64,000 bases of DNA from a phage (GCA_024682255.1 GCA_024682255.1_4716.1), one strand, 5' to 3'; positions 6,365 through 53,536 are shown, counted from the first letter of the stretch. The notes: a model not told the origin generated them from the sequence alone. A program made the numbers and translations.

Positions 6365-6572
6365 CGTCAACCTCCATCTGATTGAAAACTATCACGCATA
6401 ACGCATTTCCCTTTTCTTGTTCTTATCAATCCGACAGCCGACGGTTTCAGCATCGTTCCTAGCGCGAGAACGACCTTACGTGTTGTCTATGCCTTATTCA
6501 TCGCAGGCGTCTGTCACCTAGGTAATGTAAGCGTCAAATTTTTTCTATTCGCAACGATAAACGGCATAGAAA

Positions 6573-6603
6573 CCTCCCCCAACCCTTACGGGCTGAGGGA
6601 GGC
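6573..6603 (-). terminator. GC-rich hairpin of the dispersed family, downstream of the 740-aa gene
   Basis: cctccc...gggagg arms 100 bp past the stop at 6702; preceded on the plus strand by catag, which is TATG on the minus strand after the hairpin. Confidence 0.55.
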
Positions 6604-6701
6604 TGACTTATGTATCACGGTGCCGGATGAATGTCCGGTGCAATGAAACCATCCGCAACGTTGTCGTCAAGAATATCATCCAACGAAGCAGCTACGGTAG
6701 T

Positions 6702-8924
6702 TCAGTTGGTCTGAACCGGCAGCTTGATGTTTTCAGTGTAGACCTTACGCAGGTTCACAACGTTAATCAGACCCAGCAGCGGGCAGTTGTTAACGAAGCG
6801 GCAGCGCGGCTGAACCATGGTTTCTTTAGAAACCTGACCGTTACGGGTAACCTGAGCAACAGATACCAGTTCCGGTACATACAGGAACATACCGAAGGTC
6901 AGCGGATCCGGAGAACCCTGGATACCACGAGACAGGGTCACGAAGATCTTATCGCGCAGCATGACGTTCGGGTTATCTACAACCACGAAGTTGAAGCTTA
7001 CACCAACGGTACGGAAATCACCATCGGTCTGCAGGAACTGCGGGATGTAGTTGTCAGTTGCTACTACGCAACGCGGTTTCTCATCAGCGTTGGAAGACAG
7101 CAGCTGCAGAGCTGGCTGATAACCAGACTCGGAGTACATGCGGTATGCCATTTCACGAATCACGTTCATGATCGCAGCAGACACTTCAGCACGACGTTCT
7201 GCAGTGGTGGTACCCTGAACAGATTTCTCCAGGTCCAGATTGATTTCTTCGAACCACGGACGGATCAGGTAACGACCGAAACCTTCGATCTGGATGTCGC
7301 CGAACTGACGGAAGCGAGAGGTCGCAACCGCTTTCAGTGCGTCTTTGTAGCTGAACAGTTTCTCAACCATCAGGTTGTCGAAACGTGCGTTAGCAGCTTG
7401 GATCAGAACGTCCAGGTCAGCAGCGTTTTCTTCCCAATCCAGCGGACGAGGAATGGAGAACGGAGCCAGCAGGCCGATTGCGTAACGTTCTTGCTTCATG
7501 TTGAAGTCAAGGTGCTTACCACGCTCACGACGGTTGCTGTTGTTACGGCGGATACGCAGTTCGTAACCAACCAGTTTGAAGCTCAGGTCTTCAGCCAGTT
7601 GTTTGAACTCTTCGCTCTTACGCGGTTGTTCGATGTTGTCCTGATCAACCAGGCGATACAGTTCAGCGTTAGCGCCGTTAACACGCAGACCGGCTTTCTC
7701 TACGTTGGAAGAACCGTAAACTTCGATTGCCAGCTGAGCAGCGGATTTCGCATCGATGATGTCCTGCAGCGCTTCGGCTTTCGCGCCTTTAACGTCAACG
7801 GTGTTCTCATCAACGAAGATGGAGTGGGTGTCGAACGCCAGGGTCATTTTGCGGAAGTCGCCTTCCAGGGATTTCTGGAAACCGTTGGTGATCAGACCAG
7901 ATACGTCGAACGGTACGTAAGAGGTTTTGCTGTGCTTGGTAGATTTGATTTCCACCAGGATTTTGGTCAGCGTGATCTGGGCGTCCAGTGCGTCGGTGTT
8001 GTCGCTGTAACCGTTAGCCAGGATGCTATCGTCTTCAGCAATACCGATCATGTCGATCAGTTTATCAACAGCCAGGTAAGACGTTTTATAAGTTACGCCT
8101 TTAATTTCGATGTCACGCGGAGCAACGATAGTTTTGTCAACGAAGTACTGTGCGTTAGCATCGTCAGCACGATAGATCGGATGCAGATCGGTCACGTCGT
8201 TGGACAGAACGTCGTTGTACATGAACGCATCCAGCAGCGGACGACGTACCCAATCAGCCGGAGTACCGTCAGCGTTACGACGCAGGTGGTTGAACACCAG
8301 CGGACGACGGAAAGATACGTCGTAACCGATCTGGTTCGGAGCCAGAACGATGGTGTTATACAGTTCGTTACCCATGCGGCTCAGACGAGAAGCCTTCACG
8401 TTGAACACAACGGAGTACGGCATCATGTCACGCAGTTCTTTCTGGTCGTAGGACAGCTGAACCAGTTCTTCAGATTCGCAACCGCAGGAATCAGCAGCCA
8501 TCATGACGAAGTTAGAGCTGTCAACTTCACGGCCAGACGGAGTGGTGCTGATGTTCATGGAACGTGCTTGTTTAGCATATTCCACCGGGTTACCATGAGC
8601 CAGCATGATCAGTGCTGCTGCACGAGCCTGCTGTGCGTTCATGGTGAACAGCTGTTCTTCAATACGCTGCTTCTCTTCCGGAGTGGTGGTTTCGAAGCCC
8701 AGCATGGACAGAACCGGTTCTTCGGCTTTACGGATGTCGCTGCTGAAGCTCTTAACATCCATTTCGTTAACCAGTTTGTCCATGGATTTGAAATCAACCT
8801 TAGAAGCAGATTCCATAGACAGGAAGGTGTTCTCCAGACCTTTGTCTGCTGGTTTGCTACCATTAGCGGTCAGGAACTGGCGAGTGGCCGCGACCTGTTG
8901 GCTAAGAAGGGTTTTATCATTCAT
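6702..8924 (-). CDS. abundant virion structural protein, putative major capsid protein (740 aa)
   Basis: ATG at 8924 with AAGGATA upstream. Strong codon bias (CGT, CTG, GAA, AAC preferred) indicates high expression, and the length matches jumbo-phage major capsid proteins. No fold-diagnostic motif is readable, so tail sheath or another abundant protein cannot be excluded. Confidence 0.45.
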   Translation of the reverse strand: MNDKTLLSQQVAATRQFLTANGSKPADKGLENTFLSMESASKVDFKSMDKLVNEMDVKSFSSDIRKAEEPVLSMLGFETTTPEEKQRIEEQLFTMNAQQARAAALIMLAHGNPVEYAKQARSMNISTTPSGREVDSSNFVMMAADSCGCESEELVQLSYDQKELRDMMPYSVVFNVKASRLSRMGNELYNTIVLAPNQIGYDVSFRRPLVFNHLRRNADGTPADWVRRPLLDAFMYNDVLSNDVTDLHPIYRADDANAQYFVDKTIVAPRDIEIKGVTYKTSYLAVDKLIDMIGIAEDDSILANGYSDNTDALDAQITLTKILVEIKSTKHSKTSYVPFDVSGLITNGFQKSLEGDFRKMTLAFDTHSIFVDENTVDVKGAKAEALQDIIDAKSAAQLAIEVYGSSNVEKAGLRVNGANAELYRLVDQDNIEQPRKSEEFKQLAEDLSFKLVGYELRIRRNNSNRRERGKHLDFNMKQERYAIGLLAPFSIPRPLDWEENAADLDVLIQAANARFDNLMVEKLFSYKDALKAVATSRFRQFGDIQIEGFGRYLIRPWFEEINLDLEKSVQGTTTAERRAEVSAAIMNVIREMAYRMYSESGYQPALQLLSSNADEKPRCVVATDNYIPQFLQTDGDFRTVGVSFNFVVVDNPNVMLRDKIFVTLSRGIQGSPDPLTFGMFLYVPELVSVAQVTRNGQVSKETMVQPRCRFVNNCPLLGLINVVNLRKVYTENIKLPVQTN

Positions 8925-9073
8925 TGAAAGTATCCTTTACAGAATTAACTTATATAAGTCGGTCGATAGACCATAGCGTACACGCGTGCATGCGCCACTA
9001 TAGTATCAGTAAACACTTACCGTTATTGAGGTCGTGATACAACACTAAAAATGCCGCATAACTTTTCCCTACG

Positions 9074-9694
9074 TCACAAACGACGCAGGCGATAATGGAT
9101 GGAACGATTGGTGCAATATGAACGGAACAGCGGCAATTGCGCAACTTCCGCAAGACTCATATTAATTCGCAGGTGTTCAATAACGGCGCTGTAGTTATCA
9201 GCAATACGATCGCTCAATAACTCTTCTGCCAATAAAGGAAGACAATCGACAACAATCGCGATCACATCCTCATTAACATAACGCACCCGAACACTCAACG
9301 GACGTTTGTCTGGGCTGTAAGTTGGATCCGCCAAACGACGTTCAATATCACGCGGATAGCTCGTCAGTAAATGGTAATAACCATTGTCATAACGATTGAT
9401 GTACTCACACAGCACATCAACATTCTTCTCTGGCGGCAAACCTGTTTCGTCATAGTGATACGCAAACATACCACCAAGCAGGTTGTTAAGATGAACCGCA
9501 GGGTTCGCTTGTTCGTGTTCTTTCGTGATGAAGAAAGGCACGTTCTGGGCTGCGAAATAAAAACCTACATCATTGGGCGATAGTATGCCGAAAAGACTTT
9601 TAGGATCCAATAACACCTGTAAGTCGTCACGCGCATTTCGAATAATCGCGTGTTCTACCCAATTCGGAACGACGAGATATCGGAGTTCCTTCAT
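9074..9694 (-). CDS. hypothetical protein (206 aa)
   Basis: ATG at 9694; divergent from the helicase-like gene starting 40 bp away. Confidence 0.75.
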   Translation of the reverse strand: MKELRYLVVPNWVEHAIIRNARDDLQVLLDPKSLFGILSPNDVGFYFAAQNVPFFITKEHEQANPAVHLNNLLGGMFAYHYDETGLPPEKNVDVLCEYINRYDNGYYHLLTSYPRDIERRLADPTYSPDKRPLSVRVRYVNEDVIAIVVDCLPLLAEELLSDRIADNYSAVIEHLRINMSLAEVAQLPLFRSYCTNRSIHYRLRRL

Positions 9695-9733
9695 TATGAT
9701 TACCTCTTTGCAAGTATCGAAAGGATTGAGTCG

Positions 9734-11344
9734 ATGGACCCAAAACAGATAGCCATTAAGATTATTACGTTACTGTTTCGTAATGCACAATTGAACCATC
9801 CCGATCCCAGTACGATCGAACATGTTAAATCCGTCTTAGATAAAGTCGAACCCCCGAAAAACCATCTCGCTACAGACGTAGATAGAGAGGTTTTCAACAA
9901 CCTGATGAATACCATTCATTGGATGTTGGAACAACCATTATCGGAACCTTTCGATAAACAACAGTTGTTACAAAGGATACGTTTAGATTGCCTTGAACAA
10001 AGCAACCTTTACGAGATTCTTGCCGACGGACTGTACGATATCGAAGACGACGCTCATATCAGTAAGGTCTGTTCACTCTATTACAACGAATTACGTAATC
10101 TGATTACCCGTCGTCGTGTTTTCGAAACCTTTAGAAACACGTACATGGATATCAGTAACGGGCGACTTGGGGATAAAGAATTTTTCGATGCGATGGCGAA
10201 TTTGAAATTATCGCTAGACAGTATCGAAATGGATACCGAAAATCCCGAAGAGATGTCGTGTATGATTGACGGCTTTATCGCTGACAGTGAAGACGATATC
10301 GAGAAAGTTGAACGTATGTTCGTCAAAGCGATGGAACGTAACAGTCCTGAAGGTGGGTTTGTAACCGGCTGGCAAGGTTTTAATAAAATGTTGGGGTCGG
10401 TCGGCGTTTTACGTCGCGGTACCTTAGGACTGATTGGTGCAATGCAGCACCGGAACAAGTCAGGCGTGTTGTTAAAACTGTTCACACATCTGGCATTGTA
10501 CAATAAACCCCATTTCTTTTTTCCGGAGCGAGCAAAGAAAGCATTACTGATTCATTTGTCGACAGAAAACGAAGTGGAAGAAAACACGCTTCAGATATAC
10601 AAGAACATGCGAGAACAGGAAACGGGCGAATATGTCGATATTCGTAAGATTGACCCTCGCGAGGCATCACGTTATGTGTTGAAGGTGTTCAACGATGCGG
10701 GTTTCTCTGTTTGTATGCGTCGTGTTGATGGGATGAGTTATAAACAACTCGCTAATCTCATCGACCATTTCGAACGCATGGGTTATGAAGTCATGGCGTT
10801 GTTCATTGACTATCTGAAAATGTTCTCATCGGAAGGGTTGGATAGAAATGGGCCGACCGGCGCATGGCTCCAAGAACTCTTCAACAAAGTCCGTAACCTC
10901 TGCAGCGTTAAACGTATTTTAGGTATGACCGTACACCAGCTGTCATCCGATGCGAAGATGCGTGCACGTGATGGTAACGATGAAGAGTTCGTTGACCAGG
11001 TCGCAGGCTTAAGTTACTGGGATGGCTGTAAAGGGATTGACCGTGAGATTGACCTTGAAGTGATTGTTGATATCGTTAAGGAACCCGGCAAACGTCAAAG
11101 CTGGCAGGTCTTTGCATTAGGGAAAGACCGTCAACCGGATAACGGTTCAACGAAACCTGAAGACAAACATTTCGCGATGCCATTCCAAACCATCGGGATG
11201 CTTCCTGATGATTACGGTAAGAAAGCGGTATATTGCCGCAAGGTTGGCGGACAACCTGTCTCCGAGGGAGGTAAAGGTCCGTGGAACAAGTTCGATGAAA
11301 ACGCAGCACCGAGTAATGAATTACAATTTGATTTAGAATTTTAA
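9734..11344 (+). CDS. DnaB-family (RecA-fold) helicase-like protein with non-canonical Walker A
   Basis: The track's start at 9650 is GTG and overlaps the divergent gene; the first in-frame ATG at 9734 has AAGGA upstream. The translation has VMALFIDYLKMF (compare DnaB LIMIDYLQLM), then VHQLSSDAKMRARDG and a segment resembling the DnaB H3/H4 region. The P-loop reads GAMQHRNKSG rather than GxxxxGK[ST]. Confidence 0.6.
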   Translation: MDPKQIAIKIITLLFRNAQLNHPDPSTIEHVKSVLDKVEPPKNHLATDVDREVFNNLMNTIHWMLEQPLSEPFDKQQLLQRIRLDCLEQSNLYEILADGLYDIEDDAHISKVCSLYYNELRNLITRRRVFETFRNTYMDISNGRLGDKEFFDAMANLKLSLDSIEMDTENPEEMSCMIDGFIADSEDDIEKVERMFVKAMERNSPEGGFVTGWQGFNKMLGSVGVLRRGTLGLIGAMQHRNKSGVLLKLFTHLALYNKPHFFFPERAKKALLIHLSTENEVEENTLQIYKNMREQETGEYVDIRKIDPREASRYVLKVFNDAGFSVCMRRVDGMSYKQLANLIDHFERMGYEVMALFIDYLKMFSSEGLDRNGPTGAWLQELFNKVRNLCSVKRILGMTVHQLSSDAKMRARDGNDEEFVDQVAGLSYWDGCKGIDREIDLEVIVDIVKEPGKRQSWQVFALGKDRQPDNGSTKPEDKHFAMPFQTIGMLPDDYGKKAVYCRKVGGQPVSEGGKGPWNKFDENAAPSNELQFDLEF

Positions 11345-11371
11345 ACGCAAAAAAAAAAAGATTGTACGGTT

Positions 11372-11403
11372 CCCTCCTCCAACCCGTAAGGGAAGGAGGA
11401 GGG
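11372..11403 (-). terminator. Hairpin of the dispersed family between convergent genes
   Basis: ccctcctcc aacccgtaa ggaaggagggaggg, with an A11 run at 11348-11358 on the plus strand (U-tract on the minus strand). Confidence 0.6.
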
Positions 11404-11419
11404 GTTATGACCGCTTTGA

Positions 11420-11746
11420 TTAACTTATTGTCATGAATTCATTAGGTGAAAATTTCCAGCCGTTCTCAGTGAGAAGCGTGTTGAGTTTCGCTGCAACGAT
11501 AAGCCATGCGTGCATGGCTGTTACATCGTATTGGCGGTTCACTCGACGTTGGTTTTCGATATTGATTTGCTCCTGTTCAGTGATGTTTGGATAAAGTGCG
11601 ATAGCGCTAGGTTTACCCAGCGCGCTAGTCATCACCGCCGTACATTCACTGATAATGTTGTTTAAGTGGTAGTTATACACCGTTCCACGCATGACGCGAT
11701 GACGGCATTCGATAATAGCGTCGTAAATGATTTCTCGAGTAATCAT
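11420..11746 (-). CDS. hypothetical protein (108 aa)
   Basis: ATG at 11746; compact spacing with the next gene. Confidence 0.7.
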   Translation of the reverse strand: MITREIIYDAIIECRHRVMRGTVYNYHLNNIISECTAVMTSALGKPSAIALYPNITEQEQINIENQRRVNRQYDVTAMHAWLIVAAKLNTLLTENGWKFSPNEFMTIS

Positions 11747-11752
11747 GATAAT

Positions 11753-12154
11753 TTAAAACATACGGTCGTTTTTAGCACGGGCGTTCATTACCAGATCGTA
11801 GATGCCTGCGGTTCGTAAGCACTCTTCGTAGTAACGATGTGCGCCTTCATCAGCCATCCATGATAACCCTCGGCTATCCGCAACAATAACCAGTTTATTA
11901 TTGTTGAACGCACACACCACACGGTAGGTCGCGTTGTTATTCGGATCGCGAGTGATAAGTTCGTAGACGCCGTTAACAGGTTTACTGAATTCACCGTTTA
12001 ACGGGATGAGTTCTGTAGTACCTTCAGCAAACGTTACGTTGATCGGTGATGGATCTTTGGCGATAACAGTATATTCCACATTGTGTTCTTCACTGGTCAT
12101 GATACCGAAGTAAGAACTCACAGGGGAACGTGGTACACTAAGAATATTAAACAT
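11753..12154 (-). CDS. hypothetical protein (133 aa)
   Basis: ATG at 12154 with AAGAGGA upstream. Confidence 0.75.
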   Translation of the reverse strand: MFNILSVPRSPVSSYFGIMTSEEHNVEYTVIAKDPSPINVTFAEGTTELIPLNGEFSKPVNGVYELITRDPNNNATYRVVCAFNNNKLVIVADSRGLSWMADEGAHRYYEECLRTAGIYDLVMNARAKNDRMF

Positions 12155-12223
12155 AGATGTTGTCCTCTTAATTGGATTTAGATTGTTGAGTATGTGATTG
12201 GAAATGAAAACGTTGTTTCGGTT

Positions 12224-12793
12224 TTAGACGATGAGTGACCAGGTGGTAAGCACCCCGCTTGCGAATTCGAGCTTAAGACGTTTACCGATAAGTTGTTGTT
12301 GGATCATCTTCTCGGTGATACGTCGATCATGCTGAACCGCTTTATCAAACGCTTCTTTCGCTTCAGCTTGGTAGAAGTTCGTTTCTTCGTTTTCGTCGAT
12401 CTCTTCGAGAGCATCATCGTCGATGTCAGCAAGTTTCACTCGACCGTTTTCATCAGGTTGTTCTGCAGGTTCATTGTCATACGGCGTGTCTTTTGTTGGT
12501 GCGACACGATGTTGCAACTCGACCTGTGTTAACATGATCTCCATCTCACCATCGATAGGAATGATTTCATCGGCGCTGCCGTTTTCGGTCAGCTCTCGAC
12601 TTTCCAGTAATGTCGTCGTAACAGAGAACACCTCTTCAACAGGAACCTCATCATCGTCGATGGTGTTAACCGTGTTGCTGGTAACTTCGGCAACGACCAT
12701 CAAATCAAATGCGTGAGGATCGCCTGGCATTTTGATTCCTGGAAGTTTGTTGAGGTACCAAGGATCAAGAATCATGATTTCTGGATTAAACAT
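12224..12793 (-). CDS. hypothetical acidic protein (189 aa)
   Basis: ATG at 12793 with AAAGGTAA upstream; Asp/Glu-rich (DDDALEEIDENEE). Confidence 0.75.
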   Translation of the reverse strand: MFNPEIMILDPWYLNKLPGIKMPGDPHAFDLMVVAEVTSNTVNTIDDDEVPVEEVFSVTTTLLESRELTENGSADEIIPIDGEMEIMLTQVELQHRVAPTKDTPYDNEPAEQPDENGRVKLADIDDDALEEIDENEETNFYQAEAKEAFDKAVQHDRRITEKMIQQQLIGKRLKLEFASGVLTTWSLIV

Positions 12794-12869
12794 CGTATTT
12801 TACCTTTCTATGTTAGGTGGATTGCGGATAGAAGAATCAATGCATAAACTAATTTAAGTTTGTTAAGGT

Positions 12870-13772
12870 TTACTTAGTCTTCGAGTTACAAGGACTGACA
12901 TGTTGTTGTACTCGTTGAATTGTATCGTAGTACGGGTTAGATTGGTTGAACATGTTGTTGTGTGGATGATAGCCGTATGGTGCATTTTGCCTTGTTGATG
13001 AGAAACCTTGTTGAGAAGGACGATTTGAATTAACCGCGAGTACGTAGTAAACCAAATTTTGACGGTCGAACGTTCCTTCGTTTTTGAAGGTGTCGGCGTA
13101 GGCTTTTACCGCTGGAGCGAGCCTATCACCATCAGCGGTAATAATTGTACCGTCTGGGTAAACTTCACGAACGACGCACCATGTTCCGATAAGAACGTCT
13201 TTGGGTGGCGTATTGCCGTATCCGGTTGTAACGGTAAGGTAAGTATCGAACCCTTCAGAACAACAAGGATGACGATAGATAGGTCCTGTCATTTCCGTTC
13301 TATCGGTATCATCGCATTTCTCTATTGAGAACGATGATGTGTCGGTTTTGAAATTGTCAAATTCTTTCTTTAAGTCGATTACAGGTTCTTTCGTATAGTA
13401 CTTCTTGATTGCTTTGACGTAAAGATCAGGAACGGTTGTCAGCATTCCGTTATACCTGATTCTCAGGTTTTCGAGTAATCCAAAGATGCTCGCGCATGCC
13501 TGTTCGCGAGGTTTTGTAAGATAAGAGATCCCCCCAGGAACGCTGGGATCTTTGAGAAAGAAGATTGCGTTATTGTCGTTGTGTGACACATTAAAGAAAA
13601 CGATTGATTCGATATATACGGAGCATAGGCTATCGTTGGCGTCGTCAGATAACACCCAGATGCACTCATCGGTCGTCTTGTTTAAAAGTTCTGTTTTGTC
13701 CACCAAACGTTGTTTCATTGCGAGGAAATGTGCCTGTTGTTCAGCGGATAATTCACGATAAATAGTGGTCAT
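12870..13772 (-). CDS. hypothetical protein (300 aa), paralog of the gene at 13858-14632
   Basis: ATG at 13772 with AAGGAG upstream. Shares PIYRHPCCSEGFDTYLTVTTGYG...REVYPDGTIIT with PIYIHPECHTTYDRYLTITGGVA...REIYPDGRIVT in the neighbour. Confidence 0.8.
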   Translation of the reverse strand: MTTIYRELSAEQQAHFLAMKQRLVDKTELLNKTTDECIWVLSDDANDSLCSVYIESIVFFNVSHNDNNAIFFLKDPSVPGGISYLTKPREQACASIFGLLENLRIRYNGMLTTVPDLYVKAIKKYYTKEPVIDLKKEFDNFKTDTSSFSIEKCDDTDRTEMTGPIYRHPCCSEGFDTYLTVTTGYGNTPPKDVLIGTWCVVREVYPDGTIITADGDRLAPAVKAYADTFKNEGTFDRQNLVYYVLAVNSNRPSQQGFSSTRQNAPYGYHPHNNMFNQSNPYYDTIQRVQQHVSPCNSKTK

Positions 13773-13857
13773 GCTCGGCTCCTTGATTACGATAAGGATG
13801 ATTGTGGTTTTGTGATGCTGGTAGGGCTCCTTTGTTTAGGGCCCTACCAATATTGGG

Positions 13858-14632
13858 TTACTCAGGATCGGCGTAGAAATGATGGGGATAGCCGGAGTAC
13901 GATCCTGCGTTACCAGTTATGAATTCTTTCTGGGAATCGACGACGAGTGCGTAGAACTGTCGGGAATTTGTTAGCGTTGAGAAATAAGCGGAAAGGACTT
14001 TTTCATTCAACGCATCGCAAGGTAGACAGGTGCGCCCGCAAAACGTAACGATACGGCCGTCAGGATAGATCTCACGAATCATTCTCCACTCACCGATATC
14101 CACTGGTGATGGCGCTGCTACACCACCTGTTATCGTTAAGTAACGATCGTACGTGGTATGGCATTCAGGATGAATATAGATCGGCTTGTTCGTTTCGACA
14201 GGTTCCGAAGTATCTCGACGACTAAGGAGTTCAACAACTTCAAGATAAATCGTTGGTAGATCGCGGAGAATACCGGTGTTACGACGTTTCTTTGTGATTC
14301 GCGGACGAATCTCGTTAAGAGCGTATTCGAGCTTACGTTCAGCTTCGTACGCATCGAGTTTTATTAGGTGGCCCGGTTCATCGGAATGATCCTGAGTTAT
14401 GTAAACGAAATACGTGTTGTCTTTTGCAGCGCGAAAGATTCGAGCGACCTTAAATGTTTCTACAGTGCGATAACCAAGGCGCGATTGATTTTCCACAGGA
14501 GAAAATATCCAATGTCGTCCTTCGTCCGCCCCAACAATTTCGTTGAAACTATCCGTTTGTTCTGGGACCTGGTAGTCAGCCATTAATGTATCAAGAGCGT
14601 CGTCAGCCAGTTTGGTGTAAATATCTGTCATG
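13858..14632 (-). CDS. hypothetical protein (258 aa), paralog of the gene at 12870-13772
   Basis: The track's ORF runs to 14817 across the intergenic hairpin; the ATG at 14632 (MTDIYTKLADD) has GAGGAT upstream and is the more plausible start. Confidence 0.75.
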
Positions 14633-14687
14633 TTTGTATCCTCGGTTGTTAAGAGAAATTTACAATGATAACAGTAACCGTTGTTAT

Positions 14688-14717
14688 CACCTAGGTAATG
14701 TAGTCGCGAAATAAACT
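14688..14717 (-). promoter_or_regulatory. Conserved leader motif CCTAGGTAATGTAGTCG[C/T]GAAATAAACTG, copy 2 of 3
   Basis: Near-identical to 53449-53473 and partly to 6515-6529; in each case it lies between an upstream hairpin and the next minus-strand start codon. Confidence 0.45.
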
Positions 14718-14735
14718 GGATTAGACAGCATAGAA

Positions 14736-14767
14736 CCCTCTCCCAACCCGTAAGGGAAGGGAGAGGG
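14736..14767 (-). terminator. Hairpin of the dispersed family (core type ccctctccc aacccgtaa gggaagggagaggg)
   Basis: A 12-bp stem with a symmetric AA/AA internal loop and a four-nucleotide loop, sitting between the stop at 14774 and the next gene; catag precedes it on the plus strand. Confidence 0.6.
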
Positions 14768-14773
14768 AATATA

Positions 14774-15407
14774 TCACCAATGATCGAAGGAACCAGGAGT
14801 GTTACGAACGATCTCAACTTGGAAGGTTATTGGTGTTGATGGCAATGAAACATATTCGCGTTGCGATAGCGGGACGTTGTCTTCTCGCTCATCGATGCGA
14901 GCGGAACCTGTCAGAAATTGGAACATAGCGACTTGAAGCTCATCGGTGAAACGGAGGTACTCACCGATGTGTGGTGTTGCATCATATCGAATAAGTACGT
15001 TGCCAAACCGTCGTGCGATATTTGGAGTATCTGTGAACGAAACAGGGAAATCCAAAGTCATTCCCATCGTTTCACCCGGCTTCATTTTCCGAATCGACGC
15101 AATTGGCACGTCGAAGATATTCCATTCTTCTTTCATCGTGTCTGGAAACACACCGCGATACAAGATGGTCTTTTGATGACGATGAACGGGTTGTAAACGG
15201 TCAACCAATATTTTCAAAGGTTTAAGTTCTTCAGCCAACTCATAATCTGCTTGGATGTTCCACTTTGCCGCAAGTTCCATTAGGTTGGGATACGCGCTAT
15301 ATTTATTGACGATAGTCCAGTTAACATTACGCAAATCAATAGGAAGGAATTTGATAATTTCCTTGTTGAATATCCATTGGTTTAATTTCTTAATCTCCGA
15401 AAGCATG
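14774..15407 (-). CDS. hypothetical protein (about 211 aa)
   Basis: Start taken at the ATG at 15405-15407 (MLSEIKK), just after the stop of the upstream gene at 15423; the track's longer ORF would overlap that gene. Confidence 0.6.
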
Positions 15408-15422
15408 ACGTACTCACTACAG

Positions 15423-16790: not shown

Positions 16791-16792
16791 GT

Positions 16793-20639: not shown

Positions 20640-20690
20640 CGCAGATTCCTGTTTGAAAGATAAGATATCACATGATGGTCGACAGCATAA

Positions 20691-20712
20691 AGCCCACCCC
20701 GAAGGGCGGGCT
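20691..20712 (-). terminator. Intrinsic terminator of the 1128-aa gene
   Basis: On the minus-strand RNA this reads AGCCCGCCC-UUCG-GGGUGGGCU followed by UUUAUGCUG. The stem contains a G-U wobble on the minus-strand RNA but an A-C mismatch on the plus strand, so it is strand-specific. Confidence 0.65.
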
Positions 20713-20727
20713 GTTTATGCTTACGGA

Positions 20728-26521: not shown

Positions 26522-26628
26522 TTGGGACTCCTACGTAGGAAAATCTTGGCGGGTGATCATGTCCGCCATTTACCTTCTGAACCGTTGATTCAGAAGTCAA
26601 AAGATAACCGGATACCAACGCCATAAAA

Positions 26629-26660
26629 CCTTCCTCCAACCCAACAGGGAAGGAGGAAGG
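26629..26660 (-). terminator. Hairpin of the dispersed family (ccttcctcc variant)
   Basis: Arms ccttcctcc / ggaggaagg carry compensatory changes relative to the core type. Confidence 0.55.
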
Positions 26661-29286: not shown

Positions 29287-29334
29287 GTGTTGTCTCCAGT
29301 AATGATTCAAAAGATAAACCTGGACGGCATAGAA

Positions 29335-29366
29335 CCCTCTCCCAACCCGTCAGGGAAGGGAGAGGG
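29335..29366 (-). terminator. Hairpin of the dispersed family (core type, loop cccgtcaggg)
   Basis: ccctctccc / gggagaggg arms, preceded by catag on the plus strand. Confidence 0.6.
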
Positions 29367-37594: not shown

Positions 37595-37616
37595 AACAAA
37601 ATAGCATGAGCATAAC

Positions 37617-37648
37617 CCTCCTCCAACCCAACAGGGAAGGAGGAGGGA
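37617..37648. terminator. Bidirectional hairpin between convergent genes (ccctcctcc variant)
   Basis: Lies between the plus-strand stop at 37594 and the minus-strand stop at 37657. Confidence 0.6.
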
Positions 37649-37656
37649 ATATGCTG

Positions 37657-40600
37657 TTATCTTACGTTATTGCTATTCTGCTGTTCGCTGAACCAACCAT
37701 ACACCTTGAGATCGGTACCGTATTTCAATGCGATATACGCATTCAGCGCAGCACAGAACAAAGACGCGAATGCCCATATCAGCGAAGGATCAACATCTTC
37801 CGTTACCACCTGGAGAGTATTATCCGGTTCCCATGATGGAGAACTGTCCATGAACGTTGCGTACCATCCCCGCCGTTGTTCTTCGGTGGTAAAGTCGCTA
37901 TGAGGTTCCAACGCTTCTTTTGCCAGACGTCGATATTCGAACATATGCGTTGCTAAAGCCGATGAGTTACCAGATTCGCCTTCATAGTTCGGATCCACCG
38001 CATAACAGAGTTCTGTTGAATCTAACAAAGCAACCGCCTGTGTGATGCTGTCGGCAGTACCTGCACCATAGAGCTCGATAGACCGCGAAAGCTTTTCACA
38101 GAACGTATTTAACGCGGCAGGATTGGACACCTGAAGGTCAAGGCCTAATGTCCACGGATAGTTACTGAACACACCCGTGAACCGCGGCATAACACCCAAC
38201 AGATGCTGACCGATTACGGCACGGTTATAAACAGCCCGGTTATAGACTTGAAACGCAGCCTCCAAGGCTTGGTTATAATGACGACGAAGTTCATCACGTG
38301 AGTTGCGGAATCTGTTTGCCGCAAGACTCGTGGCTGCGACGCTACAAACATCGTAATTGGTGGACGAAAGCACAACCTCGTTAAGATCGAACGCTTCCTG
38401 TTTCAATGTTCCGCTAACAGCCGCCGCTTCGCTGTTCGCTTTATCGACAACAGTACTCAAGGCGTTGATGTAACGTTTAGCTCGGACTTCCAGCCACTGT
38501 GCGATGCCGAGAATATCCACCGCAGCTTTAGCAAGATCGCGTGCATTCACGATTTCGTTCTTCAACGCCCCTAAACCTTTATTCTCAGGCGAAGAGGCTT
38601 GTTGGCGAATCATGCTGTTCAACATGGTAAGCAGATTATCCAACTCATGTCCACTGACCTTGTTACGCGCATCGGTAATCGGCCCTTGCAGGAATTTACG
38701 GCAACCGTCGTTGTATCGAATCAGTTTATCCACATCGATAGATTCGTTCGTGGATTCCTTGAACTGATCCTTCAATTCTTCACGGTAGTCGTGGATTTCA
38801 CTTGCGAGATTGTCGATAGTGATACCATCATGTCCAAGAAGAACTTTATCGAAGTTACCTTTCTCGAATGCCAGAGCAAGACCTTCACGAATCTTAGCGA
38901 GTTTATCTTGATCGAGTTCACGCCCGTTCGATAGCTCTTTCACTTCCGAACTGATTAGTGCCGCAACGTTACCCAGATTGTCGGTAACGCCTTTGAACGC
39001 TCCCGACCAGATCGTTCCTGCTTCAGCGTATTTCGCAATGGTCTGAATACCGACGGTGTGCAACGACGCTAAACGTTTCTTCGTGCCTTCGGTAAGCAGA
39101 GCGTCTTTAGCTCGTGTAAGCTGACTGTTATTGGCTTCCGCCTGCTGAATCGCTGCTTTCGCACTTCCATTACGCCAGCTCTTAACCAGCCAATCGACCA
39201 AACGTTTTAGAATGTTGACGGTGTATTCCATCGTCCGCCGTAACGTTTCCCACGCGCTTTCTGCGGTATAGATGCCGTACCCTTCCATCTTCAACGCTTT
39301 CAAGCTTGTTTGACGTGCCAACCATTCTACCGTTGCAGAACAAACGTTTACTAATGCTTCTAGGTAGTTGTAATAGACGTCTGTTGCAGCCGTTTCGTTG
39401 AGCTTTGAATGCAGATAAAACTGATCGTAAAGTTCGTCGTCATCGCCGAAGGCATCGTAGTTCCACAGCTCAGTATCGCAGCCTGTGCCGCAGAAGACGT
39501 CTGCTGTTGTAAACTCTTTAAGCGCTTTAGCCGCATCATTCGTCAGGAATTTACCTGTTTCAACTACATCATCGACGTTAAGCTTGGGGAGTTCATCGGT
39601 AACTGGCTCTTGCAACATTAACGTGTTGAAGAATGCGCTGTACTTGTATCCGAGCCATTTTGGATAACTGCTTTCAGGTATCGTAGACAACGGCTTGATT
39701 TTCTTGGCTTCAGCCAGCGTGTCTTTTGCAACCTGATATTGGTTTTCCCCAGCCTTGATGCGTCGTAACGCTTTTTCTTCCAACTGCTGGAGTTTGGCAT
39801 GCCGTGCTTGTGCTGGAGCTTCAACGAGTTTTTGTACCGACTGCATTGCTGAAATCGCTTCTTTTAATACGATCATCGGCATACGAACTTTGCCGTCGTC
39901 AAAACTAAGAGCACGAGCGACACGCTTACTTACGACAGGTTTGTCGTGGATATTTCGTTCCACCCACGATTTGTTTGCGTAAGTTTGAGCGATTTGCTGT
40001 TGGATATTTTCAAGGTATTTCCAGCTTTTGGATGCCTTGCTATCCAAAAGCGGATTCGGTCCCTTCTTATCGAAAAGTTTCAGAATCGGATCAAAGAAAC
40101 CTTCCTGTACAAGATCGATACGTGTATATCCGTCAGCCGCTTCGATTTCTTCTTGGGTTTTATCCCAAAGCTCTTCGCTACGGATAGCAGTAGCGGTTTC
40201 AGATACCGACATAACAAGCTCAGCAACAGCTTCAGCGTAAGTCAGTACGGTACGCACACATTGCACTAACATGCGCTGGTAAACGATACGTGCGTTTTGC
40301 AGACGTGCGATAACCGCTAAATATCCGATGTTGTCAAGATTTTCATCGGCTTGAGCGGATTCAACGCGTTCTAACAGTTGTTTAACTAGCGCCGCTGTTT
40401 CTGGGTAATCGTTCACGACGTCACGCATGATTCGTGATGCGAAAACCGCGGTACCTAAAACGGTGAGAAGTGTTTTACCGTCCCATTCTTTCGGTGCTGC
40501 TACCGATTCAGTAGGGATGAGATTTCCCGCTTGGTCGAAGTACGGCATAAGGACATTGATATCAGTCGACGGAACAGCAGTAACTGCGTTGTACTCTTCA

Positions 40601-46140: not shown

Positions 46141-47640
46141 ATGAGCGAACAAGAACGAAAACCTAAGAAGAAACTGCTCGGTATTCAATGTCGACACATC
46201 AGCTATAACGAAGCGAACGATGGCAGCAAGAACGACCTCATGATCGCAAAAGAGATCATGTTCTTTGATGATAATACGCAAGCGACGAACCTTCGCTTCT
46301 TCGAGAATTACAAACGTCCGTTTTGGGTGACGGTAGAGAGTAAACGTAAGAACAAATATAAAAAGGAAAGCGAGAAGCTCTCGCACGTACGTCGCTATGA
46401 TGTCCGTCAAAGTGAACTGGTTGAAAAGATCAGTTCGGTGCTTTATAAAAGACGTGCTGATGATAACACCCGTTTACAGCAGCTTGCACGGAGTCCATAC
46501 CTCTATGGAACGGACGTTAGCGCTAGCTGTTATTTAAAAACCCAATACAATACAAAATGGCCGGAATACGTCGATAAATTACCCGCTTCCATCGCCTGTT
46601 TCGATATCGAAACCGACGTTGTCCATGGACACGGTAAGATCGTCTGTATGTCTATTACAATGGGATACAATGCGATCCTTTGCTATACCAAGGACTTCGT
46701 TGGTCATATTCCGAATGCGATTGAGAAAACCCATGAGAAGATTCGATATTACCTGGCCGAACGTCTAAACACCAAAGAAGATCCGCACGCATTTGAAAAA
46801 TATCAGTACGATGTGCGAATCGTAGAAAGTCCGGCACAAGCGGTCATCCAATGCATGCAGAAGGTTCACGAATGGCAGCCGGATTATCTCCTTGGCTGGA
46901 ATATCGCGTTCGATATTCCGCGCATGCTCCAGGCACTGAACGAAGAAGGGTATCGTCCCGAGGATGTTTTCTCCGATCCCCGTGTACCACCTAAGTATCG
47001 TATTGCTCGCTGGGTACCACCGAAGACCGACAAGGTATCTGCTTCAGGGCGTAAAACCAACCTTACCCTTGAGCAAACCTGGCCGATGTTTTATACGATG
47101 GCTACGTATCAGGTTATGGATGCGATGTGTGGTTATAAGTTCGTTCGTTTAGGAAGACCGGATGAGGGACGTTATTCACTCGATGCGGTATTAGAGCGAA
47201 ATAAATGCCATACGAAATTAAAAGCAATTCCTGGTACAGAAGGGTTCACAGAGCTTGCGTGGCACGAAGAGATGCAAACGAACCATCAAATCGACTACGG
47301 TGTATATAACCTTTGGGATAACCAAGGCATCGAGGCGTTGGACCAGAAAACAAAAGACTATTCGATGACCATCCCTATCCGTTTAGCGGCGTCGGATTTG
47401 AAAGATTTCAGTTCTAACCCTAAACGTATCTGCGATAAACTTTTCTTCGTTTATCTTAACCGTGGGGAAGTCATGGGCTGCACTGCCGACGACATGACCC
47501 AGGAAGAAGATAAGTGGGTTATCTCACGAACCGGACATATCGTCACATTGCCGTGCGATCTCATGGCGGACAACGGCATCCATCTCTTCTGGGATATGCC
47601 GAACCTGAGAAGTTATATTAGATTATTTGTTGCGGATTAA
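46141..47640 (+). CDS. DNA polymerase N-terminal/3'-5' exonuclease domain protein (499 aa as annotated; the C-terminus may be spliced)
   Basis: ATG at 46141. Exo I ACFDIETD, Exo II GWNIAFDIP and Exo III YGVYNLWD are present at family-B-like spacing. No polymerase motifs A, B or C are present, consistent with a split polymerase. Confidence 0.6.
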   Translation: MSEQERKPKKKLLGIQCRHISYNEANDGSKNDLMIAKEIMFFDDNTQATNLRFFENYKRPFWVTVESKRKNKYKKESEKLSHVRRYDVRQSELVEKISSVLYKRRADDNTRLQQLARSPYLYGTDVSASCYLKTQYNTKWPEYVDKLPASIACFDIETDVVHGHGKIVCMSITMGYNAILCYTKDFVGHIPNAIEKTHEKIRYYLAERLNTKEDPHAFEKYQYDVRIVESPAQAVIQCMQKVHEWQPDYLLGWNIAFDIPRMLQALNEEGYRPEDVFSDPRVPPKYRIARWVPPKTDKVSASGRKTNLTLEQTWPMFYTMATYQVMDAMCGYKFVRLGRPDEGRYSLDAVLERNKCHTKLKAIPGTEGFTELAWHEEMQTNHQIDYGVYNLWDNQGIEALDQKTKDYSMTIPIRLAASDLKDFSSNPKRICDKLFFVYLNRGEVMGCTADDMTQEEDKWVISRTGHIVTLPCDLMADNGIHLFWDMPNLRSYIRLFVAD

Positions 47641-47707: not shown

Positions 47708-48814
47708 ATGTCGAGTAGTTATGAGTATCCAAAGATTACTGAATGTGTTGTTTCCGAAGAAGGTATCTTCGACCTCGATATGAAGCCGTTACCACTTACC
47801 GTGGAAGATGGAATATCGTACGTCAAACTTGACTGGTACCGTGGTCCCGGTCTGTATGACGCAGGTCTTGTGGTAATGCGTAAACTGCATGCTATCAACA
47901 TATACGAAGATCTGTTAGACGAAGCACATTCGTTGTATATCGATGGGAACCCAGAAAACATCAAACGTGAGAACTTGCTTTATCGTTTCAAGAACGGTAA
48001 GTTGGAACACAAGGGTTATCCGGGCTATTACTACGTCCCTTTCTTTACACACTACGTGATAAACGAGCAAGGCGAAGTGATCAGTCTTTTAACCGGGCAA
48101 AAGAAATCATGGACACGGTCGAAAGGGGATCCGAAACGAAATAAGCGTGCTGGGTACTTATATCAGCGCGTCGTTAATGATAATGGTTTCACAGCCCAAA
48201 TGTTTCAACATCGTGCGATGGGTTACGTGTTCCTGGAATACGGTGCCGACGTGATGACAAAGATCATCAACCACATAAACGGCATCAAATGGGATAATCG
48301 TCCATGCAACATTGAATGGACAACCTATTCTGAGAACAACAAGCATGCGATTGATAGCGGTCTTCGTACAGAAGGCTTACATCCTGTTAAGGTTAAGGAT
48401 TACAACACCGGTGAGGTTAGGGTATTCCCAACAATCGCTGCGTGCTGTGCTGCTTATCCATGCTTGGAACGTAAACGTGTTTGGTATTGGATGACGCGTA
48501 AAACGAAATTCATGCCAGCCTGCAATCTGTATTTCAAAGAAGTCGATGATGATACTCCGTGGCCAGATTGGCAAATCGGACAGCACCGTCGTCTTCAGGA
48601 ATACGATATGGGCCACCCTATCGCAGCTATCGATAAGCAAACCGGTAAACGTTATGTGTTTGCATCAATTGCTCACGCACAACGAGAGACGGGTGTTTCT
48701 AACGTGACTATCACGAAGTACTGTCGTAATAGACTTACAGAAGGTCGTTCTCCATTCATCTTCCGCTATTTTGAAGATGTTAGTTCGATGCCTGTAGGCC
48801 TTAACGACGCTTAA
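47708..48814 (+). CDS. HNH homing endonuclease
   Basis: ATG at 47708 with AAGGAG seven nt upstream (an alternative ATG at 47681 exists). HNH motif INHINGIKWDNRPCNIEWTTYSENNKHA and a C-terminal helix-turn-helix-like segment GKRYVFASIAHAQRETGVSNVTITKYC typical of phage homing endonucleases. Confidence 0.8.
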   Translation: MSSSYEYPKITECVVSEEGIFDLDMKPLPLTVEDGISYVKLDWYRGPGLYDAGLVVMRKLHAINIYEDLLDEAHSLYIDGNPENIKRENLLYRFKNGKLEHKGYPGYYYVPFFTHYVINEQGEVISLLTGQKKSWTRSKGDPKRNKRAGYLYQRVVNDNGFTAQMFQHRAMGYVFLEYGADVMTKIINHINGIKWDNRPCNIEWTTYSENNKHAIDSGLRTEGLHPVKVKDYNTGEVRVFPTIAACCAAYPCLERKRVWYWMTRKTKFMPACNLYFKEVDDDTPWPDWQIGQHRRLQEYDMGHPIAAIDKQTGKRYVFASIAHAQRETGVSNVTITKYCRNRLTEGRSPFIFRYFEDVSSMPVGLNDA

Positions 48815-48899
48815 CCGATTTTAGGTCCCGGTGGGGATAACGCCCCCACCGGATTCCCGTTAATTGCTGGAACCCCCTAAAGCCTTTCGACCACAGCGG

Positions 48900-49200
48900 A
48901 TTCTGAAAAGAAAAACGCGATGGTTAGAAAACAGAAAGGATGTTCGTAAGGAAGCGATAAATGGGCAATCAGCAGCGAAGCTTCTAAGGGCGTGCGTTAG
49001 CAATAAGACCTAAGAAGAACGTTCAACGACTATCCGGTCGCGCGGAGTAAGGGACAAGCGTCCCCAAACACGGGAGGGGTGCGAAAGCATTCCATGATAT
49101 AGTCTGCTCCTAAGTGAAAGCTTAGGCGGGTGGCACACACCGGCATAAGAGTTGCGTCTTATGTGGACAATGGCTTGACATCTCCTCGTCCTACCCGAAT
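48900..49200 (+). ncRNA. putative group I intron catalytic core (boundaries approximate)
   Basis: Non-coding, GC-rich stretch after the endonuclease gene. P7-like pairing GACUA (49028-49032) with UAGUC (49100-49104), a candidate P8 hairpin gggac-aagc-gtccc (49051-49064) between them, and a P9-like hairpin cctaag-tgaaag-cttagg (49109-49126) directly after, in the canonical order. Confidence 0.45.
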
Positions 49201-49514: not shown

Positions 49515-50000
49515 TTATGTGTGTTCGTTGCCAACTTTCACTTTGTAATCAGCATCGGTTAAGAAAATAGACAGGAATCCATGTTCTTTGCAAATCTGAC
49601 TAAGGATGTCAGCAATGATTTCGTTGATCATCGGTTTGTTTGCAAGGGCATAGATGTACCCGGGTGTAAAAGAAAGTGCATGATTGATCATAGGCTCATG
49701 AGAAGCCAAGATAAGGATCACGTGATGCTTCCCATCGTCGGTAACGACCGCTTGCGTAGACACGAAGAAATCAGTGAAGCAGCAGCGATCACAGGCTTTA
49801 GGTATATACAAATCACCCAGAGCTTCGTCACGTGCTTTTACGTGTGTTTCAGGGGTAATGCTGCTAAGTTGATCTTCAGCGAGATCCAAGACATCCTCAA
49901 TCGTTTTAAGAATAGCGTTGCGGAAATCCTCGCGGTAGAATGGGATGATATCACGATCGTTCATGTAATCGCCGGATTCGATAGTAAAGTTGATGTTCAT
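49515..50000 (-). CDS. hypothetical small protein (161 aa), member 1 of a nine-gene array
   Basis: ATG at 50000 with AGGAG upstream. Confidence 0.75.
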   Translation of the reverse strand: MNINFTIESGDYMNDRDIIPFYREDFRNAILKTIEDVLDLAEDQLSSITPETHVKARDEALGDLYIPKACDRCCFTDFFVSTQAVVTDDGKHHVILILASHEPMINHALSFTPGYIYALANKPMINEIIADILSQICKEHGFLSIFLTDADYKVKVGNEHT

Positions 50001-50511: not shown

Positions 50512-50542
50512 TGTTTCTTTTCCTGTTATAGTCAACATATAG

Positions 50543-50573
50543 CCCTTCCCCGGCCTTGACGGCTAGGGAAGGG
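50543..50573 (-). terminator. Hairpin of the dispersed family (cccttccc variant)
   Basis: cccttccc...gggaaggg arms; catatag precedes it on the plus strand. Confidence 0.5.
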
Positions 50574-50588
50574 TATGTTTACGTATAT

Positions 50589-50984: not shown

Positions 50985-51141
50985 TTTTTATCCTTAATGT
51001 TATCGATTTAGAAATATTACTTAATTACTGTTTTATTTATCGATGGTTGTTACCCATGATGGGAAAGCCGGATGGAAACAGAGCGTGAACGTAACCTTCG
51101 TATCGTATTTAATCGCTGAACTTTATCTTTGATAGACATGA

Positions 51142-51600: not shown

Positions 51601-51626
51601 TTTCTACCTCAATAGTTTAACCGGCA

Positions 51627-51652
51627 CGTGTCCCCACCTAACAAGGGACACG
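51627..51652 (-). terminator. Hairpin cgtgtccc-loop-gggacacg
   Basis: 8-bp stem between array members. Confidence 0.45.
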
Positions 51653-51666
51653 ATATCATCGATTAA

Positions 51667-52161: not shown

Positions 52162-52206
52162 ATTCACTTCTTTCTTAATCTAAATGTTAGTTGGGGGATG
52201 GGATGC

Positions 52207-52809: not shown

Positions 52810-52863
52810 ATCGAATTCCTTAAATTCTCTTGAGTTCAATTGATGATGAAAAGCTGTAAAAAA

Positions 52864-52881
52864 GGTGGGGCGAACCCCACC
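52864..52881 (-). terminator. Classic intrinsic terminator
   Basis: On the minus strand: GGUGGGG-UUCG-CCCCACC followed by UUUUUU, directly after the stop at 52907. Confidence 0.7.
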
Positions 52882-52906
52882 AAAACGTCAGACACACGCA
52901 GGAAAA

Positions 52907-53332
52907 TTAATTCAGTGACGCATATAAGGCATAACGACTGTAGATTTCAACCGCCGGTCCGTTATGCGTTAACAGACCATCCCGGTTGTAATACTGGAAA
53001 AATGAATAACGTTTGTCGAAGTGATAAACAAAAGCAATGTCTTTGCCGTCAAAACCTGTGATGCGTGGTCTGTTTTTATCTAGCAATGCTTTAACTTTTA
53101 ACAGTGTTGCCGCACGTGCTTTAACGTTAGGGATCAAGCCATCACAATCGATATAAACAGTGTAACCTGTTTCAGATGTTGCGACGGTCGTATTGCGATT
53201 GACGCGGAAGATTTTTGTTTCGTATGTACTATCTTCAAGAATTGGGTTTTGTTTTTCGTATTTTCGTTTACGCAGAAATTCTACAACGGTGATATAGTTA
53301 GCGGTAATATGCCCGGTTATAGCTTGTAACAT
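52907..53332 (-). CDS. hypothetical small protein (141 aa), array member 7
   Basis: ATG at 53332 with AAAGGATG upstream. Confidence 0.75.
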   Translation of the reverse strand: MLQAITGHITANYITVVEFLRKRKYEKQNPILEDSTYETKIFRVNRNTTVATSETGYTVYIDCDGLIPNVKARAATLLKVKALLDKNRPRITGFDGKDIAFVYHFDKRYSFFQYYNRDGLLTHNGPAVEIYSRYALYASLN

Positions 53333-53448
53333 CTCGACATCCTTTTATATTGGATTGATTGCAATTGTCTTAAATAGATGATAAGATATTTTGCTCTTAT
53401 CACTAAGGTAACGCTTACGCGTCGCGTTCATGATGCATGGCATCATGA

Positions 53449-53473
53449 AGGTAATGTAGTCGTGAAATAAACT
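53449..53473 (-). promoter_or_regulatory. Conserved leader motif, copy 3 of 3, with adjacent inverted repeat
   Basis: aggtaatgtagtcgtgaaataaact matches 14692-14716 at 20 of 21 positions; an inverted repeat ttcatgatg-catgg-catcatgaa lies at 53427-53449. Confidence 0.45.
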
Positions 53474-53504
53474 GCGTTAACACGAAATAAAAAACAGCAT
53501 AGAA

Positions 53505-53536
53505 CCCTCTCCCAACCCGTAAGGGAAGGGAGAGGG
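53505..53536 (-). terminator. Hairpin of the dispersed family (core type)
   Basis: Identical core to 14736-14767 and 60673-60704; an A-run and catag precede it on the plus strand. Confidence 0.6.

Follow-up and report, generated by a model that had tools for sequence, protein, structure and literature searches.

In phage phiKZ, transcript ends have been mapped by Putzeys et al. (2024), and most of its predicted intrinsic terminators share the motif 5'-BCCYCCCCHWWDGGGRRGGBYTTATKYYGT-3', which was derived from 61 terminator regions with E = 1.7e-212 (PMC10914365). Motif A of phage 201phi2-1 (n = 59) resembles the phiKZ terminator motif and has elongated-stem variants; of eight 201phi2-1 terminators assayed in uninfected host cells with a terminator trap, six were equal to or above the lambda T0 control (PMC11512511). 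The early promoters of these phages are conserved AT-rich motifs centred near -10, with more conservation at -20 and -30, and are used by the injected virion polymerase (PMC7598289, PMC11512511). The phiKZ late promoter has the core 5'-TATG-3', in which G is the +1 position; this core is necessary but not sufficient, as downstream sequence also matters (PMC4666361), and late-promoter logos show nothing conserved upstream of it (PMC4666361, PMC7598289). It is the beta-like subunit of the non-virion RNA polymerase that recognizes TATG, on the non-template strand and with structural evidence for a binding pocket (PMC12809450), and promoter recognition by this polymerase is still called puzzling (PMC4666361, PMC12809450). 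Here, we compare with these systems two recurrent elements in a 64,000-nucleotide (nt) stretch of phage DNA (GCA_024682255.1_4716.1; the whole stretch is referred to below as the window), namely hairpins at gene ends that are followed by a TATG-containing tail and a leader motif that occurs shortly past three of these hairpins.

The window derives from a close relative of Escherichia phage vB_EcoM_Goslar (hereafter Goslar), a nucleus-forming jumbo phage of the Chimalliviridae, with a megablast identity of 96% over window positions 14000-22000. Using blastn over the whole window, it is found to be collinear with Goslar 36,738-96,772, interrupted by few insertions or replacements. Because the window alone has too few sites, the Goslar genome (237,307 bp, 247 annotated genes) served as the genome-wide test bed for context statistics, and these two, the window and Goslar, were compared in full. 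A search for more distant relatives in IMG/VR with the head protein returned solely contigs with 99%-identical head proteins, and promoter or terminator motifs for Goslar-type phages were not found in the literature searched.

Based on the comparisons described below, we propose, with a probability of about 0.7, that the two elements are separate signals of a Goslar-like nucleus-forming jumbo phage: the hairpin with its TATG tail would be the intrinsic-type terminator of the family and the leader motif an early promoter. Judged by their sequences, both are members of signal classes already known in the Chimalliviridae. The original prediction had placed a TATG-containing sequence immediately after hairpins at seven minus-strand positions, and all seven could be recovered: in each, a GC-rich hairpin at a gene end is followed after 1-5 nt by T(C/T)TATGC(C/T)GT. 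Further cases exist beyond these, and the hairpins do sit at terminator positions. The elements are as follows, with TATG positions given from T to G.

6561..6608, minus strand: candidate terminator 3' of the major head gene (8924..6702), hairpin 6568-6608 with core 6571-6604, tail TTTCTATGCCGT, TATG 6568..6565; -31.3 kcal/mol, z -6.2; tail UAUG paired with a CAUA further upstream
9057..9089, minus strand: weaker hairpin (9068-9089), partly within the end of gene 9694..9074, tail GAAAAGTTATGCGGCA, TATG 9060..9057; upstream of the major head gene; not among the seven
14725..14767, minus strand: candidate terminator, nested hairpin CCCTCTCCC-TTCCCTTACGGGTT-GGGAGAGGG (14736-14767) and TTCTATGCTGT, TATG 14732..14729
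20682..20721, minus strand: candidate terminator, hairpin core 20691-20712 (AGCCCGCCC/GGGTGGGCT), stem extended by GCAUAAA/UUUAUGC, tail TTTATGCTGT, TATG 20689..20686; the Goslar counterpart is annotated as a putative terminator at 55080-55101
26618..26660, minus strand: candidate terminator, nested hairpin 26629-26660 and TTTTATGGCGT, TATG 26625..26622
29324..29366, minus strand: candidate terminator, nested hairpin 29335-29366 and TTCTATGCCGT (the tail also found at 6565), TATG 29331..29328
50536..50572, minus strand: hairpin 50541-50572 and TATATGTTGAC, TATG 50539..50536; not among the seven
52858..52881, minus strand: contrast case, a classical hairpin and T-run without TATG; Goslar terminator annotation at 86155-86172
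53494..53536, minus strand: candidate terminator, nested hairpin 53505-53536, identical to 14736-14767, and again TTCTATGCTGT, TATG 53501..53498
54461..54508, minus strand: candidate terminator, hairpin core 54474-54501 and GGCTTTATGCCGT, TATG 54468..54465
101..150, both strands: two-way hairpin 110-144, TATG 104..101 on the minus strand and 147..150 on the plus strand
11371..11409, both strands: hairpin between convergent genes, plus-strand tail GTTATGACCGC; the minus-strand tail is a T-run without TATG
37611..37657, both strands: palindromic candidate two-way terminator between convergent genes, CATA-hairpin-TATG on each strand, with TATGCTGT on the plus strand at 37650-37657; -33.8 and -31.1 kcal/mol
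60668..60722, both strands: palindromic candidate two-way terminator between convergent genes, TATGCTGT twice in tandem on the plus strand at 60707-60722 (the duplication reads TATGCTGTTATGCTGT), minus-strand TATG 60671..60668

The hairpins have folding energies of -25 to -34 kcal/mol and z-scores of -3.6 to -7.2 against shuffled sequences (RNAfold). Seven loci in the window and 14 in Goslar carry a nested 32-mer, CCYTCYYCC-TTCCC-NNNN-GGGTT-GGRRGARGG, while the other loci have simpler stems; between the window and Goslar, differences in the nested 32-mer are confined to the 4-nt loop, and the stems vary in a compensatory manner (CCCTCTCCC/GGGAGAGGG, CCCTCCTCC/GGAGGAGGG and CCTTCCTCC/GGAGGAAGG). 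In seven of nine predicted folds the UAUG of the tail pairs with an upstream CAUA, which lengthens the stem and renders the element palindromic, consistent with two-way use. A terminator scan requiring at least five T in 8 nt made no call at these elements, and some plus-strand tails lack any U stretch (GGGAATATGCTGT) and are nevertheless located at gene ends. An Rfam scan of the window identified a group I intron as its sole match and assigned no known RNA family to the hairpins.

The window contains 14 copies of the extended tail TATGCYGT, whereas shuffles contain 3.42 +/- 1.98 and none of 100 reaches 14. A hairpin immediately precedes eight of these copies, and a ninth (60715-60722) repeats in tandem the copy at 60707-60714, itself next to a hairpin. 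For TCTATGC by itself there is no enrichment in the window (8 versus 5.8); the TATG signal is one of position. Of 38 intergenic strong-hairpin strands in the window, 22 have TATG at the 3' foot, as compared with 5 of 99 hairpins within genes. The same holds in Goslar. There, with all stem-loops at or below -15 kcal/mol in a sliding-window RNAfold scan taken as the hairpin set, the foot defined as -8 to +16 nt and a terminator position as an intergenic strand after the end of a same-strand gene, TATG is found at 52/85 terminator-position hairpin strands and at 26/368 within-gene hairpins (odds ratio 21, p = 2e-26), and TATGYYG at 27/85 and 5/368, respectively. Goslar has 40 copies of TATGCYGT, 20 of them in intergenic DNA, which makes up 7% of the genome. 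Nineteen copies are linked to a hairpin (18 intergenic and one at a gene 3' end), and every one of these is downstream of the end of a same-strand gene, seven of them facing a convergent gene. All seven full TATGCYGT tails at Goslar convergent sites are on the plus strand (for example, 27741-27783, 71985-72027 and 93440-93482), where they are preceded by AA or CT instead of a U-rich spacer, and the minus side has TATG without the extension.

The original prediction also held that hairpins between convergent genes mostly lack TATG, which turned out to be incorrect, as hairpins 110-144, 37616-37647 and 60673-60704 carry it on both strands and hairpin 11371-11404 on the plus strand; the one convergent hairpin without it (48828-48852) is inside the group I intron and is hence not a terminator candidate. 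In Goslar, TATG is found at 26 of 37 convergent sites and 26 of 48 tandem sites, a difference that is not significant (p = 0.18), and on the antisense strand of tandem sites it is seen in 10 of 42. Hairpin-free intergenic TATG in Goslar has no sense-strand excess upstream of genes (65 sense versus 43 antisense, values also covered by the other orderings of T, A, T and G), and hairpin-less intergenic TATGCYGT amounts to one or two copies, a density not above that of coding DNA. Since convergent and tandem sites carry TATG equally often and hairpin-free TATG, short as it is, shows no enrichment, the tail tracks terminator position and not the presence of a gene to be transcribed. The proposal that TATG is a late promoter is thus not supported by its context, and a genome-wide enrichment of hairpin-less TATG upstream of genes was undetectable in Goslar.

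The elements closely resemble the phiKZ terminator motif and 201phi2-1 motif A. A CCYCC.../...GGRGG stem-loop is followed by YTTATKYYGT, located at gene ends, acting presumably in two directions at convergent pairs and present in dozens of copies per genome; the pyrimidine-rich 5' arm and purine-rich 3' arm of the phiKZ stem (CCYCCCC...GGGRRGG) are both found here, as is its position just 3' of the coding-strand gene end and, in two-way form, between convergent genes. YTTATKYYGT is matched exactly by the tails at 20686 (CTTTATGCTGT) and 54465 (CTTTATGCCGT), and the TTCTATGCYGT sites are one base off. The phiKZ genome has equivalent tails at both convergent and tandem sites, including CATA...TATG on both strands, and further ones are found in Erwinia phage RAY (TTATGCCG and TTTATGCTG). 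Phage AR9, which has a different late promoter, was examined over 50 kb for terminator tails that vary along with that promoter, and few hairpins are present there. Unlike in phiKZ and 201phi2-1, the host is E. coli and the genus Goslarvirus, the hairpin of many copies is longer, being the nested 32-mer, TTC often takes the place of TT as the spacer, and the K position is a near-invariant G; also, the phiKZ motif comes from mapped 3' ends, whereas the terminators of this phage are predicted from sequence. Bacterial bidirectional intrinsic terminators are likewise palindromes between convergent genes with a hairpin and tail on both strands, although their flanks are homopolymeric A/U runs and not the specific CATA and TATG seen here.

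The leader motif was noted by the original prediction in three leaders, and it is indeed shared among them, though unequally. A 26-nt string is present in two near-identical copies with at most three mismatches (14693-14718 and 53449-53474; none expected), and at the third site (6515-6529) the match is limited to about 15 nt. The k-mers most enriched upstream of Goslar genes are TATATTA and ATATTAC, and the intergenic TA(T/C)ATTAC sites align into a family of about 44 nt, tAaT.cAaaa..tTTcAcGnC-TAtATTAC-cTa.gTGA. A position weight matrix built from 13 exact-core Goslar sites has exactly three hits in the window, which are the three leaders, at 44-46 bits against a shuffle maximum of 16.6.

6510..6553, minus strand: early-promoter-type motif, core TACATTAC at 6529..6522, then CTAGGTGA; 44.1 bits; 165 nt upstream of gene 6364..4928
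14683..14726, minus strand: early-promoter-type motif, core TACATTAC at 14702..14695; 45.4 bits; then a small leader hairpin and gene 14631..13858
53439..53482, minus strand: early-promoter-type motif, core TACATTAC at 53458..53451; 45.6 bits; then a 43-nt two-hairpin insert that Goslar does not have

The matrix has 14 hits in Goslar. Each is on the minus strand and points at a gene, the next same-strand gene beginning 39-219 nt further on. One of them falls inside a dubious small open reading frame (ORF), gp047, and the other 13 are intergenic; the nuclear-shell gene gp246 and the RNA polymerase beta gene gp165 are among the genes with such a site upstream. The conserved AT-rich core TA(T/C)ATTAC, a following ...TGA and a gene-directed placement before hallmark early genes are all features of early promoters. 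The early regions of phiKZ read TTCAAAC..TTTAAACAG-TATATTAC-tAAcTTGA, and TTTATATTACTAAATTGA precedes phiKZ gene 54, at the location given by Yakunina et al. for the early promoter P54E (PMC4666361). In RAY, CAAGTC-TATATTAC-GTATGTG precedes the shell gene; phiKZ, RAY and Goslar all have an early-type motif ahead of their nuclear-shell gene. In the GenBank record of AR9, AAnTATATATTAT (core TATATTAT), followed by ..TGA, is annotated as 'early promoter'. This match of the core to phiKZ, RAY and AR9, together with the published descriptions of early promoters, leads us to read the leader motif as most likely an early-type promoter of the virion RNA polymerase class. Features common to it and the early promoters of phiKZ, 201phi2-1 and AR9 are the TATATTAC core (TATATTAT in AR9), TGA further downstream, T/A-rich upstream blocks and an intergenic, gene-directed location; unlike the phiKZ and AR9 promoters, the window copies have TACATTAC, the upstream block TTTCACGAC is Goslar-specific and the start site and timing are putative. 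In a separate observation, matches to the host sigma-70 promoter consensus are depleted in window positions 1-20000 (12 versus 29.9 +/- 5.8 in shuffles).

As only three of the 14 Goslar early-type copies follow a hairpin and the spacing from hairpin to motif varies between 28 and 40 nt, the terminator and the early-type promoter are independent modules that abut at three window loci; for the same reasons, we rejected the TATG tail as a part of the early promoter. The terminator-promoter cassettes of the original prediction are retained in part, in that a candidate terminator is followed by a candidate promoter at three loci, the promoter being most likely the leader motif and probably not the TATG. 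A comparable arrangement is seen in phiKZ, where a hairpin, CTTTATGTTGT and then TATATTAC come directly after the major head gene, matching that of window positions 6510-6608.

We hypothesize that the GC-rich stem-loop, with its pyrimidine-rich 5' arm and purine-rich 3' arm and often in the form of the nested 32-mer, folds in the nascent RNA, and that the short and weak U/A hybrid following the stem (UUCUAU or UUUAU) is where the multisubunit RNA polymerase of the phage would release the transcript. The pairing of UAUG with CAUA would make the element palindromic and allow it to act from both directions at convergent gene pairs. The leader of about 44 nt would be an early promoter for the virion-packaged polymerase, with a T-rich upstream part, the core TA(T/C)ATTAC and CTnnGTGA around the likely start. 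At 6.5, 14.7 and 53.5 kb, where the putative promoter is 28-40 nt past the putative terminator, the upstream unit would be closed and an early unit opened. The observations that bear on this scheme in the two genomes concern sequence, structure, enrichment, gene orientation and conservation across phages; that such hairpin motifs coincide with RNA 3' ends and such promoters are early is carried over by analogy from published work on the relatives, and we infer from it both functions in this phage and the role of the conserved UAUG. That both signals are conserved among family members infecting Pseudomonas, Erwinia and E. coli suggests that polymerases of the phage itself recognize them. For E. 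coli jumbo phages of the Goslar type, which are a main model of the phage nucleus, the comparison provides a transcription map based on sequence, with 14 early-type promoters and about 50 hairpin sites with a TATG tail, and it flags small ORFs that probably reflect only the AUG of a terminator tail.

Several points weigh against this interpretation. Terminator and promoter function in this phage and in Goslar would follow from homology and not from RNA-end data. A plain U-tract suffices for a classical intrinsic terminator, and the strict A and G of UAUG, as well as the C-Y-G-U after it, are not explained by a hairpin-plus-U model. The tail moreover contains the late-promoter core TATG; TATGYYG in Goslar is, per strand, commoner at tandem (20/48) than at convergent sites (7/37; p = 0.035); and no other TATG is present between the hairpin and the next start codon at 20686, 26622, 29328 and 54465. 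As for the leader, five early-type copies, including all three in the window, carry TACATTAC instead of TATATTAC, and these could belong to another temporal class.

The overlap of tail and late-promoter core, together with the tandem bias of TATGYYG and the several hairpin-to-start-codon gaps that have no other TATG, would be accommodated if the element were dual, such that the hairpin terminates transcription and the adjacent TATG, with G as +1, is a late promoter from which the non-virion polymerase restarts the next gene, GCYGU being a favoured initial transcribed sequence. The original prediction had correctly pointed to a TATG late-promoter element of phiKZ-like phages. Non-virion initiation in phiKZ needs TATG with a G start and depends on downstream sequence (PMC4666361), and its beta-like subunit reads the non-template TATG (PMC12809450); Goslar encodes homologous polymerase subunits, and the tetranucleotide is the same. 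Also in its favour is a single hairpin-less TATGCCGT, 24 nt before gp219 in Goslar. It is in the divergent region between gp219 and the tail-sheath gene (197079-197221), which has three TATG per strand in 143 nt and is the best candidate for stand-alone late promoters. We nonetheless consider a dual element unlikely. The tetranucleotide itself agrees with the late promoter, but a 4-nt match has little discriminating power, and the tails are not placed toward a downstream gene on the same strand: TATG is as frequent where no same-strand gene follows, often on both strands, and as a promoter would there drive antisense transcription into the facing genes, seven full TATGCYGT among them facing a convergent gene. 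Intergenic TATGCYGT and TATG outside hairpin contexts have, as noted above, no excess, and the extended motif is essentially confined to hairpin contexts, unlike the phiKZ model late promoter P119L, which has no upstream hairpin, and the late-promoter logos, which have no conservation upstream of TATG. Lastly, the equivalent motif of phiKZ was derived from mapped 3' ends (PMC10914365).

Less likely still, and a refinement of the preferred reading rather than its replacement, is a promoter-like pause, in which the TATG pocket of the polymerase captures the tetranucleotide during elongation as the hairpin emerges, perhaps aided by a Y-G step about 10 nt past the stem, and the pause lets a hairpin with a short U-tract terminate. 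The pocket in the beta-like subunit has structural support (PMC12809450). UAUG(CYGU) is conserved across phiKZ, RAY and Goslar despite a protein identity of roughly 25%, and the tail occurs on both strands at all positions that require termination, including the gene ends where the plus-strand tail has no U stretch (GGGAATATGCTGT). The proposal is speculative in that it rests on analogy to the pauses of bacterial polymerase, which include sigma-dependent and consensus elemental pauses. In addition, UAUG is often base-paired in the predicted folds, which could by itself explain a part of its conservation, and the 201phi2-1 terminators worked in uninfected cells, without phage polymerases (PMC11512511).

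It is conceivable, if doubtful, that the tail is more than a weak hybrid and that, in nucleus-forming jumbo phages, one contact of the beta-like subunit of the non-virion polymerase with non-template TATG has two uses, defining the start site at promoters and bringing about pause and release, or immediate restart, at hairpins. If true, this would represent a sequence-specific termination mechanism for a multisubunit polymerase, and could help explain how a genome of 240 kb tolerates a promoter core of just 4 nt. The remaining interest of the element is in this unexplained identity of the terminator tail and the late-promoter core, and their overlap provides a concrete, testable hypothesis.

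T4-like phages have promoter-early stem-loop (PeSL) repeats, in which a promoter and a stem-loop form repeated modules beside variable accessory genes. That the present elements are similarly recombination or mobility modules bounding gene cassettes, with a secondary role in transcription, is highly improbable: three large insertions relative to Goslar (at 12.8-15.4 and 53.5-54.0 kb) all abut a hairpin-promoter cassette, hairpin 53505-53536 has been swapped with tail and promoter kept, and the 32-mer recurs at 7 window and 14 Goslar loci, but the gene-end position, strand bias and conservation in distant phages fit a transcription signal, and terminator repeats can serve as recombination substrates without being mobile. 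Like the PeSL repeats, the modules adjoin variable accessory genes; unlike them, the stem-loop here precedes the promoter, and there is no evidence here for excision or mini-circles.

A role of the tail in translation initiation, with the GGAGG-like 3' arm and the AUG acting together, was also considered and rejected, as the ORFs starting at a tail AUG have median lengths of 18 and 9 codons and only 4 of 52 are real gene starts. Two annotated Goslar genes, gp047 (49584-49772) and gp167 (152177-152272), start exactly at a terminator-tail AUG just past the GGAGG-like 3' arm and are probably miscalled; gp047 also contains an early-type promoter.

Four genes without a Goslar counterpart adjoin terminator/early-promoter cassettes (15406..14774, 14631..13858, 13772..12870 and 54005..53550, within window positions 12847-15423 and 53514-54015). 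A Pfam search found no match for the four, and PHROGs gave one weak match to a function-unknown PHROG. Over window positions 53407-53545, the terminator hairpin is replaced by a different one as compared with Goslar, whereas the TATG tail and the promoter are kept. The 43-nt two-hairpin insert at this locus comes right after TACATTACC and is flanked by TTACCTT direct repeats, and a similar CTTCATGATG...CATGAAG hairpin follows another Goslar early-type promoter, at 226695.

Two other loci differ from Goslar. In gene 37657-41262 (1201 aa), the match to Goslar gp064 (930 aa) is confined to the C-terminal 544 residues, and the N-terminal 657 residues have no match in Goslar or Pfam and a marginal one to a function-unknown PHROG. 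The group I intron (48801-49126, plus strand; Rfam RF00028, 68.7 bits) has no equivalent at the matching place in the Goslar record, in which two other group I introns are annotated. It is located directly after an HNH/NUMOD1 endonuclease ORF (47708-48814) that is only 41% identical to Goslar gp069 and has a DNA polymerase ORF (46141-47640) upstream.

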